From Escherichia coli (GTDB taxonomy: Bacteria > Pseudomonadota > Gammaproteobacteria > Enterobacterales > Enterobacteriaceae), in NCBI RefSeq assembly GCF_013122565.1, contig NZ_CP053258.1: a stretch of 64,000 nt of DNA. One strand, written 5' to 3'. Made by a program: the position numbers and the translations under genes. Below, piece by piece: positions 43,976 through 51,489 of the stretch (position 1 is the stretch's first letter; every line of letters starts with the position of its first letter). The notes beneath the pieces were generated by a model that searched no databases, was not told where the DNA came from, and was given only the letters and a program-made list of their open reading frames with translations.

Positions 43976-44878
43976 ATGTCACAGGTTACTGAAAATAAAG
44001 TGATTAGCGCACCGGTGCCGATGACCCCGTTACAGGAGTTCTGGCACTATTTTAAACGCAACAAAGGCGCGGTCGTCGGGCTGGTTTACGTCGTCATCGT
44101 GCTGTTTATCGCGATCTTTGCCAACTGGATTGCACCCTATAACCCGGCGGAACAGTTCCGCGATGCACTGCTCGCCCCGCCAGCCTGGCAGGAAGGCGGC
44201 AGCATGGCGCACTTGCTGGGCACCGATGACGTCGGTCGTGATGTGCTGTCGCGCCTGATGTACGGTGCGCGATTGTCACTGCTGGTTGGCTGTCTGGTGG
44301 TGGTGTTATCGCTGATTATGGGCGTTATTCTCGGCCTGATCGCCGGTTACTTCGGCGGCCTGGTCGATAACATCATCATGCGCGTGGTCGATATCATGCT
44401 GGCGCTGCCAAGTCTGCTGTTGGCACTGGTGCTGGTGGCGATTTTCGGCCCGTCGATTGGTAACGCCGCGCTGGCGCTGACCTTCGTTGCCTTGCCGCAC
44501 TATGTGCGCTTAACACGCGCCGCCGTGCTGGTGGAGGTGAATCGCGATTACGTTACCGCGTCTCGCGTGGCAGGTGCCGGGGCGATGCGTCAGATGTTTA
44601 TTAACATCTTCCCGAACTGCCTTGCGCCTCTGATTGTTCAGGCGTCGCTCGGTTTCTCTAACGCCATTCTCGATATGGCTGCTCTTGGTTTCCTCGGCAT
44701 GGGGGCACAGCCGCCAACGCCTGAGTGGGGCACCATGCTCTCCGACGTGTTGCAGTTCGCGCAAAGCGCCTGGTGGGTCGTGACCTTCCCTGGTCTGGCG
44801 ATCCTGCTGACGGTGCTGGCATTTAACCTGATGGGTGACGGTCTGCGTGACGCGCTCGATCCCAAACTGAAGCAGTAA
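43976..44878 (+). CDS. dppC: dipeptide ABC transporter permease
   Basis: 300-aa permease matching DppC. Confidence 0.9.
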
Positions 44879-44888
44879 GAGGTTCGAG

Positions 44889-45872
44889 ATGGCGTTATTA
44901 AATGTAGATAAATTATCGGTGCATTTCGGCGACGAAAGCGCACCGTTCCGCGCCGTAGACCGCATCAGCTACAGCGTAAAACAGGGCGAAGTGGTCGGAA
45001 TTGTGGGTGAGTCTGGCTCCGGTAAGTCGGTCAGTTCACTGGCTATTATGGGGCTGATTGATTATCCGGGCCGCGTAATGGCGGAAAAGCTGGAGTTTAA
45101 CGGTCAGGATTTACAGCGTATCTCAGAAAAAGAGCGCCGCAACCTGGTGGGTGCCGAAGTGGCGATGATCTTCCAGGACCCGATGACCAGCCTTAACCCG
45201 TGCTACACAGTGGGTTTCCAGATTATGGAAGCGATTAAGGTGCATCAGGGCGGTAATAAGAGCACTCGTCGTCAGCGGGCGATTGACCTGCTGAATCAGG
45301 TCGGTATTCCCGATCCGGCATCGCGTCTGGATGTTTACCCGCATCAGCTTTCCGGCGGCATGAGCCAGCGCGTGATGATCGCCATGGCGATTGCCTGTCG
45401 GCCAAAACTGCTGATTGCCGATGAACCAACCACTGCGCTGGACGTGACCATTCAGGCGCAAATCATTGAACTACTGCTGGAGCTACAGCAGAAAGAGAAC
45501 ATGGCGCTGGTGTTAATTACCCATGACCTGGCGCTGGTGGCGGAAGCGGCGCATAAAATTATCGTGATGTATGCCGGCCAGGTGGTGGAAACGGGCGATG
45601 CGCACGCCATCTTCCATGCGCCGCGTCACCCGTATACCCAGGCATTGCTGCGTGCGCTGCCGGAATTTGCTCAGGATAAAGAACGTCTGGCGTCGTTGCC
45701 AGGTGTTGTTCCCGGCAAGTATGACCGTCCGAACGGCTGCCTGCTTAACCCGCGCTGCCCCTATGCCACTGACAGATGCCGCGCTGAAGAACCGGCGTTG
45801 AATATGCTCGCTGACGGGCGTCAGTCCAAATGCCATTACCCACTTGATGATGCCGGGAGGCCGACACTATGA
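44889..45872 (+). CDS. dppD: dipeptide ABC transporter ATP-binding protein
   Basis: 327-aa ORF; Walker A GESGSGKS, signature LSGGMSQR. Confidence 0.9.
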
Positions 45873-46873
45873 GTACGCATGAGGCCACCTCGCAACAACC
45901 GCTGTTGCAGGCTATCGACCTGAAAAAACATTATCCGGTGAAGAAAGGTTTGTTCGCACCGGAACGTCTGGTGAAGGCGCTGGATGGCGTTTCGTTTAAC
46001 CTTGAACGTGGCAAAACGCTGGCGGTAGTAGGTGAATCTGGCTGCGGTAAATCGACCCTCGGTCGGTTGCTGACGATGATTGAAACGCCCACCGGCGGCG
46101 AGCTGTATTACCAGGGGCAGGATCTGCTCAAGCACGATCCGCAGGCGCAGAAGTTGCGTCGGCAGAAAATCCAGATTGTCTTCCAGAACCCTTACGGTTC
46201 GCTGAATCCACGTAAAAAAGTCGGGCAAATTCTTGAGGAGCCGCTGCTGATTAATACCAGCTTAAGCAAAGAACAGCGTAGGGAAAAAGCCCTGTCGATG
46301 ATGGCGAAAGTCGGCCTGAAAACCGAGCACTATGACCGCTATCCGCATATGTTCTCCGGCGGTCAGCGTCAGCGTATCGCCATCGCCCGTGGTCTGATGC
46401 TCGACCCGGATGTGGTGATTGCCGATGAGCCGGTTTCCGCGCTGGACGTCTCAGTGCGTGCGCAGGTGCTCAACCTGATGATGGATTTGCAGCAGGAACT
46501 GGGGCTTTCTTATGTCTTTATCTCGCACGACCTGTCGGTTGTGGAGCACATTGCTGATGAAGTGATGGTGATGTACCTGGGCCGCTGCGTGGAGAAAGGG
46601 ACGAAGGACCAAATCTTCAATAACCCGCGCCACCCGTACACTCAGGCGCTGCTCTCCGCCACACCACGCCTGAACCCGGACGATCGTCGCGAACGCATCA
46701 AACTCACCGGTGAACTGCCAAGCCCGCTCAATCCACCGCCGGGTTGCGCCTTCAACGCCCGCTGTCGTCGGCGCTTCGGCCCCTGCACTCAGTTACAGCC
46801 ACCGCTGAAAGATTACGGCGGTCAACTGGTGGCCTGCTTTGCCGTTGATCAGGATGAAAATCCGCAGCGTTAA
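45869..46873 (+). CDS. dppF: dipeptide ABC transporter ATP-binding protein
   Basis: 334-aa ORF; Walker A GESGCGKS; overlaps dppD stop by 4 nt. Confidence 0.9.
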
Positions 46874-46902
46874 CTCACAAAACCGGGGCCATGCGCTCCG
46901 GT

Positions 46903-48174
46903 TTACTCAATCAGCTTCAACAGTGGCGACAAGCATAGCAAAATGCCGTACAGCAGAATTAGCCAGGCTTTAAACCCGCGAAGTTTTTCCAGTTGTGCGA
47001 CTTTATAGATCAGGAAAAACGGAATGAGGCACGACACAATGCCATATAACGGGCTTCCCAACTGAAAGAACACCAGCACCGATACACGAAACGAAACCCA
47101 AATCGTCAACGTAATGACGATAAAAGCGCAGATCGCCAGAGTCAGTACGCGTGAGTTAATTTTCTTGGTATCAATAATTCGGCTTAACAGATTGAGAATA
47201 ATGCCTTTAATGGCCTCGTGGAAACCGAGATAAATGCCAAAGAATGCGGTGAGTACGGCAAAGATATTCAGCACCGTAGAGGTGATATGAATGATATGCC
47301 CAGGGATCACCTGCGCGGCCAGCGCCAGTGCCGAGATATTTTGTTCAAAGGCAGAAACGGCTTCTTCGTGGCTAATTGAGAAGGTAAACGAAAAAGCAAA
47401 AAACAGGATCACCGCGATGAGCGTGACATAACTAATTCGGTGGGTACGCAGCGCGAGCCGGGTTGCCAGTACTTTATCCGCTTCCCGTTTACGATAGGCA
47501 ATATTCATTGGGTTAAGTACCTGAATAAATACTGCAGAAAAGAAGCAAAATGGAATGGTAAGCAGGACATCGCGGAAAAAGACGGAGGCTTGTGGGAAGG
47601 CGGTTATATTGGCGAAATTCCAGTGCGGGATCATCGCAAAACCGAACACGACAATAATCCCTACTTTGACCACCACCATTGGCCCAGAAATCTTAAACAG
47701 TAATCGTTCACCACCAGACGCAATCGCCACCAGTACGGCGAAAATGGCGACTTTATAAAGTAGAGATTGTGAAAGATCGGCATCGGTTAAACCGAAGGTT
47801 TTCAGGTACGAGGCGCTGTCGAAAACCACGGAGAGAGAGTAGATAAAAATCCCGTGGATAATCATCAAAAAGTAGATAACTCCGAGGAAAATTCCCCAGT
47901 TCTTCCCCAGGTAATGACTGATAATATCGGTGTAGTCATTACAGGAATCGCTTTCAGAAAGGGTTTTTAAATAAATGTCCTGTACTACCCAGGTGGCAGG
48001 ATAAGCAATGATCGCTGCGGTAATAAATACCCAAATTCCCTTCAAGCCAATTTGTACTGGCATCAGCACGGTTCCGGCACCAATCGCCATGCCTATGCAT
48101 AATAAAACCCAGCCGAAGTCGTAGCGTGTAAACGGCAATTTCTGATCGTGTTTCGGTAGTGTGTTGTGCTGCAT
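46903..48174 (-). CDS. yhjV: amino acid transporter family membrane protein YhjV
   Basis: Start at [20 protein letters not shown] (codon 22 of track ORF 46903-48237); 423 aa. Confidence 0.85.
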
Positions 48175-48534
48175 AAAGTCCTGTCCAGAAAGAAGTCGGC
48201 CTCGCAAAAATGAATAAACCCAGTTTCTCTTGCGCAACAGGTGGAGAAGTCGAATACGCAGTATGTAAAAAATGAGGCAACAGATTCACTGGGGAGGTCG
48301 CGAGGAGGCGCAATTCTACAAAATTGCGCATTTCACTACCAGTCTGGAGTCAGCCCGGATATGAACTGCAACTATTGCAAATAAAGAAATTAAGCTGGAA
48401 GGCATCACGCAATGAGGAAGATTGTCGGGTGCTGAGGGTAAAAAGCAATCGTAAAATCAGCGGCAAGCCGGAAGGGTTCCGGTGAGGCGCAATGTTGCGG
48501 GGGCTTTATCCCTGGTGGCATTGGTTGCTGGAGA

Positions 48535-48601
48535 GAGAAAACCCCCGCACGTTGCAGGTATGCACCTGACAACACCACGGGGGCTAATCTTGACTCTAGA
48601 C
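48535..48601 (-). ncRNA. rdlD: Rdl antisense RNA, copy 1
   Basis: Minus strand reads gtctagagtcaagattagcccccgtggtgttgtcaggtgcatacctgcaacgtgcgggggttttctc, matching Rdl as recalled (terminal hairpin plus U tail). Confidence 0.55.
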
Positions 48602-48649
48602 CACTCAAGAATAGCCGCGAAACGTTGTCATTACAACACAGGCGGCTAT

Positions 48650-48757
48650 ATGACGCTCGCAGAGCTGGGCATGGCCTTCTGGCATGATTTAGCGGCTCCG
48701 GTCATTGCTGGCATTCTTGCCAGTATGATCGTGAACTGGCTGAATAAGCGGAAGTAA
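48650..48757 (+). CDS. ldrD: LdrD type I toxin peptide, copy 1
   Basis: 35-aa MTLAELGMAFWHDLAAPVIAGILASMIVNWLNKRK. Confidence 0.85.
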   Translation: MTLAELGMAFWHDLAAPVIAGILASMIVNWLNKRK

Positions 48758-48807
48758 CGTGTCATGCGGGCGTCAGGCTGCCGTAATGGCAATTTGCGCC
48801 CGGACCA

Positions 48808-48838
48808 GGCCGCAGGGGTGAAACTCTGCGGCCTTTTT
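48808..48838 (+). terminator. ldr terminator, copy 1
   Basis: Hairpin ggccgcaggggtgaaactctgcggcc followed by tttttc. Confidence 0.65.
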
Positions 48839-49017
48839 CGTAAGAAAAATGCAACGGTTGCAAGCGGATAATATTCTGCGGAATGCGCAGCACAGAGTGA
48901 AGACGTGACGGATTTCGGAACAGAAAAACAGTCGTAGAATCAGCGGCAAGCCGGAAAGGTTCCGGTGAGGCGCAATGTTGCGGGGGCTTTATCCCTGGTG
49001 GCATTGGTTGCTGGAGA

Positions 49018-49084
49018 GAGAAAACCCCCGCACGTTGCAGGTATGCACCTGACAACATTACGGGGGCTAATCTTGAACCCAAAC
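49018..49084 (-). ncRNA. rdlD: Rdl antisense RNA, copy 2
   Basis: Same position within unit 2; 3' hairpin conserved, 5' portion differs from copy 1. Confidence 0.5.
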
Positions 49085-49132
49085 AACTCAAGAATAGCCG
49101 CGAAACGTTGTCATTACAACACAGGCGGCTAT

Positions 49133-49240
49133 ATGACGCTCGCAGAACTGGGCATGGCCTTCTGGCATGATTTAGCGGCTCCGGTCATTGCTGGCATTCT
49201 TGCCAGTATGATCGTGAACTGGCTGAACAAGCGGAAGTAA
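49133..49240 (+). CDS. ldrD: LdrD type I toxin peptide, copy 2
   Basis: Identical 35-aa peptide; synonymous differences only. Confidence 0.85.
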   Translation: MTLAELGMAFWHDLAAPVIAGILASMIVNWLNKRK

Positions 49241-49290
49241 CGTGTCATGCGGGCGTCAGGCTGCCGTAATGGCAATTTGCGCCCGGACCA

Positions 49291-49321
49291 GGCCGCAGGG
49301 GTGAAACTCTGCGGCCTTTTT
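49291..49321 (+). terminator. ldr terminator, copy 2
   Basis: Same hairpin as copy 1. Confidence 0.65.
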
Positions 49322-49500
49322 CGTAAGAAAAATGCAACGATTGCAAGCGGATAATATTCTGCGGAATGCGCAGCACAGAGTGAAGACGTGACGGATTCCG
49401 GAGCAGAAAAACAGTCGTAGAATCAGCGGCAAGCCGGAAAGGTTCCGGTGAGGCGCAATGTTGCGGGGGCTTAATCCCTGGTGGCATTGGTTGCTGGAGA

Positions 49501-49567
49501 GAGAAAACCCCCGCACGTTGCAGGTATGCACCTGACAACATCACGGGGGCCATTCTTGAACCTGAAC
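49501..49567 (-). ncRNA. rdlD: Rdl antisense RNA, copy 3
   Basis: Same position within unit 3; 5' portion differs from copies 1 and 2. Confidence 0.5.
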
Positions 49568-49615
49568 AACTCAAGAATAGCCGCGAAACGTTGTCATTAC
49601 AACACAGGCGGCTAT

Positions 49616-49723
49616 ATGACGCTCGCAGAACTGGGCATGGCCTTCTGGCACGATTTAGCGGCTCCGGTCATTGCTGGCATTCTTGCCAGTATGATTGTGA
49701 ACTGGCTGAATAAGCGGAAGTAA
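49616..49723 (+). CDS. ldrD: LdrD type I toxin peptide, copy 3
   Basis: Identical 35-aa peptide; synonymous differences only. Confidence 0.85.
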   Translation: MTLAELGMAFWHDLAAPVIAGILASMIVNWLNKRK

Positions 49724-49773
49724 CGTGTCATGCGGGCGTCAGGCTGCCGTAATGGCAATTTGCGCCCGGATCA

Positions 49774-49804
49774 GGCCGCAGGGGGTAAACTCTGCGGCCT
49801 TTTT
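49774..49804. terminator. ldr terminator, copy 3 (also convergent bcsG terminator)
   Basis: Hairpin ggccgcagggggtaaactctgcggcc followed by tttttcg; 5 nt from the bcsG stop. Confidence 0.65.
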
Positions 49805-49809
49805 CGTTC

Positions 49810-51489
49810 TTACTGCGGGTAAGGCACCCAGTCGCCGCCGTTCAGGCGAACGTACGGTTTATCCTGGTATTGAATAACTACTGCATTTGAGTTCTCGGAG
49901 ACCGGTGCTGTTTGTGGCAACCCACTGGTGAGTTTTTTCCAGTCAACATTGTCTTCGGTGAAAATCTTGCCATCAAGAACGCGAACCACCAGATCGGAGA
50001 TAGCCAGGAAGCTGCTCGGTTGGTCGATAACAATCGGTGCCCCCTGATGTGGTGCCTTCATGCCGAAGAATTTCACCCCAACGGGGACGTCGGTGATAGA
50101 CGGGCTAGGGATATCACGTAGGCCAGATACCTGCATTCTGTCGCCCTTCAGCGCGCCGCCGTGTTCCGGCACCACGACCACCATCACTTTACGACCCGAT
50201 TTCTCCAGTTCAGTAAAGAAGGCGTCCAGTTCATCAAAGAATTTCTGCGCCCGCGCTTTGTAATCCGCTGTTTTGCTGACGCCCGGATAATGGTTGCCGT
50301 CATGCAGTGGAAGTGTGTTGTAGAACGTGGCACTACGGCTGTTTTTATCTTTTTCGGTAACGTCCAGCCAGCGGTTAAGCACGGCGGTATCGTCATAAAC
50401 CGGCGAACCATCAAAGCCCAGCAAAATAATCGGCAGATTTGTTTGATCCATCAATTCAGTCTGCATGCCGCCATTTTCGCGAACTTCTTTCAAAAAACCG
50501 CCGAACTGGCCGTTATGTCCCATCATCAGGTGCTGGGTAAAGCCCAGTTTCGACAGGTTATCAAATAGATAGCAGTCGTTATTTGCCGGTTGATACAGAT
50601 TAGTGTGCGAAGTCTGCCCGCAGCTGGCGCGCAGTAAACGGATCGCCGCCGGGCCACTGTAGGAGGTGGCGGAGTTAAAGTTCTTGAACTCAATATCGAA
50701 ATGCGACCACAGCGGATGCGACATCAACCCGGCGGCTTCTATATCCGACCAGGAAAGCGAACAGATATTAATCACCAGTAGTTCAAATGGCTGAGCATCA
50801 GCGGGCAGCGAAGACGGGAAGGTCGATTTACGTTTCGCCTCCGCGTTATAGAAATTATTCAGCCAGGCGTTAAGGTTCGCCGTTGTTGGCGGTGCAGTTT
50901 GTGCGGGCATATCACCCACTACCGGTGCGCCACCCGTCGCCGCAACGGTTGCCGCTGCGTTACCACCCGTCGTTGTTACAGTGGTCGTCGGTTGTCCGGC
51001 TGGCCACAAGGAGAAACTTGGTCCCGCCAGGGTAAGTACGTTCAGCCATAGCAGTATGGCAACCACAAAAACGGTAATGCGAATCCATTGTGACAGGAAT
51101 AACCAGGCCACTAATAAAACAAAAATGGCCCCAATCATCTGCCAGTTAATAAAGCGTGTGACAAGGTCGATTAAATAATCGGTACTGAACCCCGCCACCT
51201 GCGAACCCTGGCTCATTATGCTTTCCGGGCCAGGCAACCAGGTGTCATGCCAGAACAAAGCAAAGCCGATCGGCAGGGCAATCCAGTGGCGCAAGCGATG
51301 CAGGCTGTAACGCGGAATGGGCATCAGCAGAAACGCGGCAAACACCAAATTGAGGAGCGGATGGAAGTTAAGATATCCCGCCCACAACAGGCCGAACTTA
51401 ACCAGAAAATAGAAGTTCCAGCCGGAAAGGCCGCGCCAGTATTGCCAGAGGGAAGAAGGCATGGCGGTATTATGCGTAAATTGAGTCAT
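49810..51489 (-). CDS. bcsG: cellulose biosynthesis protein BcsG
   Basis: 559-aa membrane protein matching BcsG (YhjU). Confidence 0.9.

Follow-up and report, generated by a model that had tools for sequence, protein, structure and literature searches.

A three-unit Ldr/Rdl toxin-antitoxin array in Escherichia coli whose copies differ at bases predicted to start antisense pairing

Known type I modules and the identity of the array

The closest described system is ldrD/rdlD of Escherichia coli K-12, in which LdrD is toxic and RdlD counteracts it post-transcriptionally (PMC4147584). In K-12, the ldrD-rdlD duplex RNA is found in vivo and is cut by RNase III (PMC7373196). In the Sib/Ibs family, the target-recognition domains lie in hypervariable regions and swapping these domains switches the target; SibD and ibsC anneal only after denaturation, and non-cognate full duplexes, although thermodynamically possible, are not formed natively (PMC2943612). 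In ZorO-OrzO/ZorP-OrzP of E. coli O157:H7, target choice lies in a single-stranded V1 region of 3 nt: OrzO represses zorO and OrzP does not (PMC3919570). The array described here touches on the question of why bacteria retain several adjacent copies of nearly the same type I toxin-antitoxin module.

The window analysed is a stretch of 64,000 nucleotides of E. coli (NZ_CP053258.1). It contains a tandem repeat with a period of 483 bp (2.8 copies, 96% matches; repeat finding and TRF), the features of which are summarized in Table 1. The repeat has all the properties of Ldr/Rdl that can be checked from sequence: a hydrophobic peptide of 35 aa, a match to rdlD and a direct repeat of about 0.5 kb, often in tandem. 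Three full-length rdlD matches (Rfam gathering score 50) lie on the minus strand and end 49 nt upstream of each ldr ATG. A terminator-like stem is present at the 3' end of each Rdl and an intrinsic terminator behind each ldr ORF. Annotation of this locus in E. coli L725 and K-12 gives ldrD or Ldr family, between yhjV and bcsG. The array is an LdrD-type Ldr/Rdl type I toxin-antitoxin module at the K-12 ldrD/rdlD locus. A placement at the K-12 ldrABC locus (kdsA-chaA) is ruled out by the flanks, yhjV and bcsG. The Ldr/Rdl system is already known, and this is a correct reading of a known system with nothing new in kind; what our analysis adds is a target hairpin in the leader and a family-wide excess of loop diversity.

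Table 1. Features of the Ldr/Rdl array and its flanks (positions in the window)
Feature	Position	Strand	Basis or remark
yhjV, amino-acid permease, flanking	46903..48237	-	Pfam Trp_Tyr_perm; yhjV annotation in matching E. coli loci
Three-unit LDR tandem array, yhjV-bcsG intergenic	48441..49807	+	Repeat finding, TRF; E. coli L725/K-12 annotation
Inferred ldr1 mRNA, ~375 nt	48464..48838	+	5' end inferred from -10 box TAAAAT (48452-48457), unmapped; units 2 and 3 at +483 and +966
Rdl copy 1, 5' end 48601	48536..48601	-	Rfam RF01813 rdlD, 87.0 bits; identical to annotated K-12 rdlD
Rdl copy 2, 5' GUUUGGGUUCAAG...	49019..49084	-	Rfam RF01813, 90.4 bits
Rdl copy 3, 5' GUUCAGGUUCAAGAAUGG...	49502..49567	-	Rfam RF01813, 83.7 bits
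Two variable linker bases, CC/TT/TC	48575..48576	+	Rdl internal-loop nt 26-27; Rfam structure line
Target hairpin, ldr1 leader	48582..48616	+	Arms 48582-48593/48605-48616; 11-nt loop 48594-48604 (CUCUAGACCAC); whole-mRNA MFE fold
Target hairpin, ldr2 leader	49065..49099	+	Loop 49077-49087 (ACCCAAACAAC); MFE fold, covariation
Target hairpin, ldr3 leader	49548..49582	+	Loop 49560-49570 (ACCUGAACAAC); MFE fold
Rdl promoter, copy 1	48608..48636	-	-35 TTGTAA (48636-48631), 17-nt spacer, -10 TATTCT (48613-48608); inferred by consensus
ldr ORF copy 1, 35 aa, LdrD-type	48650..48757	+	Pfam PF13940 Ldr_toxin, 93.2 bits, positions 1-35 of 35
ldr ORF copy 2, same peptide	49133..49240	+	Translation
ldr ORF copy 3, same peptide	49616..49723	+	Translation
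ldr1 intrinsic terminator	48807..48834	+	Also 49290-49317 and 49773-49800
bcsG, flanking	49810..51489	-	Pfam CBP_BcsG, 783 bits; annotation in matching loci

K-12 carries a single unit at the yhjV-bcsG locus, and other E. coli genomes have 1, 3 or 4 units there, labelled as toxins of the Ldr family. Of the 5,426 complete E. coli genomes with which we compared the array and its flanks, many have 3-4 units in an array and none has the exact combination of three alleles; the best match to the array (48241-49900) is 98.3% identical. For the flank at 44000-48300 (dppC-yhjV), the best identity in the same set is 97.7%. Escherichia sp. E1V33 and E. whittamii are less similar to the window than the best E. 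coli genomes. Decay of individual toxin copies does occur: E. coli HUSEC2011 has four Ldr copies at the yhjV-bcsG locus, of which the first (643-749) is a frameshifted pseudogene with an intact Rdl region.

The array is like K-12 ldrD/rdlD in its locus, leader, promoter layout and terminators, and its first Rdl is rdlD itself. K-12 LdrD is one residue apart from the window peptide (F3L). The array is unlike K-12 in having three units rather than one, with other Rdl tail alleles on units 2 and 3. It shares with Sib/Ibs the arrangement of multi-copy, cis-encoded antisense/toxin pairs that are near-identical except in short, accessible, hypervariable segments; however, Sib overlaps the entire ibs ORF and Rdl only the 5' UTR, and the specificity of Sib, which gives cognate-only repression through two target-recognition domains, is experimental, whereas that of Rdl is predicted. 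Like Zor/Orz, it is a tandem type I duplicate whose choice of target would fall to a few unpaired bases close to the 5' end of the sRNA, but Orz is divergently encoded with 18 nt of complementarity, whereas Rdl is fully antisense over 66 nt. As in hok/sok, the antisense RNA begins with a single-stranded 5' tail that precedes one stem-loop, its target is the leader and not the toxin start codon, and the mRNA is long, with predicted 5'-3' pairing and a sequestered ribosome-binding site. A model of leader-ORF coupling as in hok/sok, with a putative leader ORF, has been proposed for Ldr (PMC4147584). On the sense strand, the ldr leaders (48499-48652, 48982-49135 and 49465-49618) score 24-32 bits against Rfam sok, below its gathering score of 59; these sub-threshold matches hint at a distant resemblance between ldr and hok leaders.

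Distribution of the differences among the three units

All three ldr ORFs encode the same peptide, MTLAELGMAFWHDLAAPVIAGILASMIVNWLNKRK, for which an NCBIfam search gave no match. The ORFs differ at four positions (48664 GAG/GAA, 48685 CAT/CAC, 48730 ATC/ATT and 48745 AAT/AAC), all of them synonymous. The shared peptide and every codon pair listed in the earlier note are thus present, although the range given there, 48575-49580, omits the third ORF. The probability that four random substitutions in the ORF would all be synonymous is 0.0026, or 0.0098 with transitions only. This bears out the proposal of purifying selection on the peptide, in the sense of either purifying selection or concerted evolution.

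The units were compared over the 401 columns that are common to them. Variable sites occupy 22 columns, and 10 of the 22 fall within the 28 nt at 48575-48602 (permutation scan, P = 2.5e-5; Fisher test against the other non-coding columns, P = 3e-7). Nine of these hot-spot sites are in the first 27 nt of Rdl and the tenth is position -1 of the Rdl promoter (48602). No variable site was found among the three units in the Rdl stem-loop (48536-48574), nor in 48603-48649, where the promoter of Rdl and the ribosome-binding region of ldr lie. The earlier observation of a divergent upstream segment, made up of the 5' part of Rdl and the ldr leader, holds: the 35-nt segments concerned, with the letters that the note quotes, lie at 48571-48605, 49054-49088 and 49537-49571, and the rdlD matches identify the divergent segment as the 5' part of Rdl. 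Purifying selection, combined with duplication in the recent past or with gene conversion, may account for the near-identity of the units in peptide, Rdl stem-loop, Rdl promoter, ribosome-binding region and 3' UTR.

In copy 1, the inferred ldr -10 box reads TAAAAT; in copies 2 (48935-48940) and 3 (49418-49423), it reads TAGAAT. The sequence upstream of copy 1 is unique, and copies 2 and 3 draw on the inter-unit spacer. These promoter differences, at 48420-48457, lie outside the divergent segment, and toxin promoter strength may vary among copies through them. A sigma-70 promoter scan of 48200-49900 under a stricter rule found none, and both the Rdl and the ldr promoters were inferred by eye.

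Leader hairpin and predicted antisense pairing

Each ldr leader is predicted to fold into a hairpin with an 11-nt loop. The hairpin is supported by covariation in 58 distinct Enterobacteriaceae family sequences: 87% of cells are paired, compared with at most 48% in slid controls, and there are 32 double-sided changes against 8.5 in shuffles, a number that was reached by none of 500 shuffles. Examples are a U-A pair replaced by C-G in Klebsiella and a G-C pair replaced by U-A in Kluyvera. RNAalifold recovered the same inner stem. The loop holds six of the variable sites (48594, 48595, 48597, 48598, 48599 and 48602) and the 5' arm two more (48585 and 48587, corresponding to Rdl nt 15 and 17). 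The last two, 48575 and 48576, lie in the linker that separates this hairpin from the previous one and forms the Rdl internal loop. In ldr3, a T>C and an A>T change in the 5' arm shift the internal mismatch of the hairpin. The 3' arm, which the Rdl -10 box overlaps, is invariant because of that overlap. Both folds predict that the ribosome-binding region is masked, by the ORF and 3' region in the MFE fold or by GCCGC at 48614-48618 in the family consensus. A YUNR U-turn motif in the target loop was considered and set aside: ldr1 has CUAG and ldr3 CUGA, and ldr2 has none.

The 5' end of Rdl falls inside the loop. Rdl nt 1-8 are complementary to 48594-48601 and nt 9-20 to the 5' arm, and the predicted cost of opening is about 0 kcal/mol for both the hairpin loop and Rdl nt 1-8. 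Of the 10 hot-spot sites, nine are in the Rdl tail or internal loop and six in the loop of the target hairpin. The differences are concentrated in bases predicted to be single-stranded in both Rdl and target, as expected of cognate-specific paralogues. Antisense pairing begins at accessible, unpaired bases. Since the differences among the units sit on such bases, the prediction for this three-unit array is that an Rdl nucleates efficiently on the mRNA of its own unit and on no other, a reading to which we give a probability of roughly 0.6.

Predicted seed energies are consistent with it. For the 8-nt seed, the cognate combinations reach -10.5 (Rdl1 with ldr1), -10.3 (Rdl2 with ldr2) and -10.6 kcal/mol (Rdl3 with ldr3). 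Rdl1 gives +1.1 with ldr2 and -1.0 with ldr3, Rdl3 gives -1.4 with ldr1 and -2.5 with ldr2, and Rdl2 gives -4.9 with ldr1 and -7.1 with ldr3. With the 16-nt tail, and opening costs deducted, cognate values are -13 to -15 kcal/mol and non-cognate values +2.4 to -10 kcal/mol. Some promiscuity is predicted for Rdl2 (GUUUGGGU), whose G·U pairs accommodate the transitions: it can pair in this way with the ldr3 loop and weakly with that of ldr1. Each of the nine combinations gives a very stable full duplex (-117 to -141 kcal/mol) because 57 of the 66 nt are shared, and therefore any discrimination would have to be kinetic, at nucleation, as was found for SibD and ibsC (PMC2943612). The earlier note had suggested that each copy could have its own pairing specificity and had named equal predicted pairing as the outcome against it. 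The predictions for each Rdl against each ldr leader are unequal, and the suggestion is partly supported, with the qualifications that Rdl2 would cross-pair in part and that the full duplexes are all stable. On these energies, each ldr copy probably answers mainly to its own Rdl. A literature search that did not take in the primary LDR papers found no experiment on Rdl cross-reactivity.

We propose the following sequence of events. Each unit would produce an ldr mRNA from the plus strand, about 375 nt long and encoding the toxin, and from the minus strand a 66-nt Rdl complementary to its leader. The free 5' tail of Rdl would nucleate on the loop of the leader hairpin, and the loop and tail bases would choose which mRNA is captured. 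Pairing would then spread through the 5' arm and the stem-loop, which the copies share, and the duplex would be handled alike in every copy, with translation blocked and cleavage by RNase III. By analogy with Sib/Ibs and Zor/Orz, and with the support of the computations given here, it is plausible that loop and tail are the specificity determinant of Ldr/Rdl.

Loop variation across the Enterobacteriaceae

To place the window in a wider setting, we used 69 units, gathered by scanning species-representative genomes, together with seven additional E. coli arrays. Across genera, the leader at 48478-48555 is almost invariant, and the only variable parts are the apical loop of Rdl, its internal loop and the tail with its hairpin loop. 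Tandem arrays numbered 21 and came from up to six genera, including Escherichia, Klebsiella, Kluyvera, Atlantibacter and one unclassified Enterobacteriaceae genome. In these arrays, which are not all independent, several being from related E. coli strains, the loop has 0.39 segregating sites per site and synonymous sites 0.074, a difference of about five times, with the reservation that synonymous sites may be a poor neutral yardstick, since the predicted fold of the mRNA pairs much of the ldr ORF. Of the 20 informative arrays, 19 have more variation in the loop than at synonymous sites (sign test, P = 4e-5). Taken by itself, the window shows no significant excess of the hot spot over synonymous sites (10/28 vs 4/24, P = 0.21), and the contrast is significant only once many arrays are compared.

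The same pattern is seen when divergence within arrays is expressed as a fraction of that between genera (23 within-array pairs, three genera). The loop reaches 81%, third codon positions 12% and the 3' UTR 9%. Moreover, the same loop 11-mers occur in genera whose ORFs are 15-38% apart; one of them, ACCTGAACAAC, is present in copy 3 of the window and in six Citrobacter species. The recurrence of loop 11-mers across genera implies that the loop is constrained and not drifting freely. On these comparisons, the loop is constrained and yet escapes the homogenisation that acts on the rest of the unit. We infer that selection, or the survival of mutually independent modules, maintains its diversity.

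A simpler account is relaxed constraint only, in which bases unpaired in both RNAs drift and every Rdl represses every ldr mRNA through the shared 57 of 66 nt. The stability of all the full duplexes and the unremarkable contrast in the window alone agree with it, as do identical neighbouring tails, which are common. At the yhjV-bcsG locus, 5 of the 9 multi-copy arrays sampled from complete E. coli genomes have at least two identical or near-identical tails. Such neighbours are found in L725, ST131, Z1322HEC0005, 65COLEC and WI2, in K-12, where rdlB and rdlC are one internal-loop base apart, and in E. whittamii, whose two copies are identical; distinct tails are therefore not obligatory. Relaxed constraint does not, however, account for a loop that varies so much more per site than synonymous sites across arrays, nor for within-array loop divergence near the between-genus level (ratio 0.81) in units of which every other part is homogenised, and free drift would not be expected to yield identical loop alleles in genera with such divergent ORFs. 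We consider it unlikely as the whole explanation.

The differences could instead tune the output of Rdl. Sites at -1 and +3 to +8 might alter initiation or promoter escape and hence the level of antitoxin, not its target; one variable site is indeed at -1 and five are at +3 to +8. The earlier note had likewise offered promoter strength as a possible effect of the divergent segment. This option is poorly supported, as the -35 box, spacer and -10 box of the Rdl promoter are identical in the three copies (+483, +966) and only -1 and transcribed bases differ. Tuning also leaves unexplained the changes at +15, +17, +26 and +27 and the coincidence of the variable bases with the loop of a covarying target hairpin, and we regard it as improbable. 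Even less probable is coding variation, in which a leader frame starting at ATG 48560 or TTG 48590 would give leader peptides or N-terminally extended toxins that differ among copies. A leader ORF, 'ldrX', has been proposed (PMC4147584), and a frame that starts in the Rdl-covered region is open to the ldr start in 67 of the 69 family units. Yet the 10 substitutions change 7 codons in the leader frame, indicating no protein-level constraint, and neither the start codon nor the frame is conserved among the 69 units: ATG 48560 occurs in D-type units only, TTG 48590 is missing in Klebsiella, and the frame of K-12 ldrA-C is different. An assembly artefact, such as a collapsed or mis-phased repeat, might be suspected in 1.4 kb of 96% identical repeats. 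It is hardly credible here, since the copy 1 segment is identical to that of K-12, L725 and A34, and the copy 3 segment to that of L725, 65COLEC, A34, HUSEC2011, E2865 and Escherichia sp. E1V33; six independent assemblies share the copy 2 loop, and the Rdl 66-mer of copy 2, which has no exact match in the complete E. coli genomes, is one base (T 49059) from about 1,330 of them.

Kinetic discrimination at the loop thus remains our preferred reading of the array. Its extension to the family, in which tail and loop would form a hypervariable specificity cassette across the Enterobacteriaceae, kept different between neighbours while the rest of the unit is homogenised, is more tentative, and we put it at somewhat less than even odds. 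If the cassette reading is true, each unit relies on an antitoxin of its own and its loss could not be silent, which would explain the persistence of arrays that encode identical toxins. Copies whose loop and tail set specificity would be independent switches rather than redundant ones. Cross-talk between Ldr and Rdl in any enterobacterial genome could then be predicted by a simple rule based on 8 accessible bases, and Ldr/Rdl would be a third family under the principle established for Sib/Ibs and Zor/Orz.

Several minor observations concern the leader and its reading frames. D-type units have no stop between ldr and the in-frame codons ATG 48560 and TTG 48590 (48560-48757). In K-12 ldrA-C, a 1-nt deletion shifts the TTG frame, which ends at a TGA overlapping the ldr ATG (ATGA). 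The 5' half of the ldr leader (48478-48555; +483, +966) is conserved in six genera beyond the toxin ORF, wobble positions included. Within it, CCCCC at 48542-48546 pairs with the upstream GGGGG at 48498-48502 in the single-sequence MFE fold or with the downstream GGGGG at 48579-48583 in the family consensus; such alternative pairings, as modelled, would allow a structural switch. In Kluyvera (L027, L028 and L063), in Atlantibacter (L038, L042 and L043) and in one further case (L053), the conserved Rdl/leader module is joined to a different ORF of 30 aa, for example MTFKQAFWLAVLTSIIGPIVVALIRYFFSF or MTFREALVIAVVTSIIGPIVVALVCHFCNI. Neither the WHDLAAP motif nor the basic C-terminus is present in these peptides, and searches of Pfam and NCBIfam gave no match; the peptides may represent a divergent, unnamed Ldr/Fst-like toxin subfamily.
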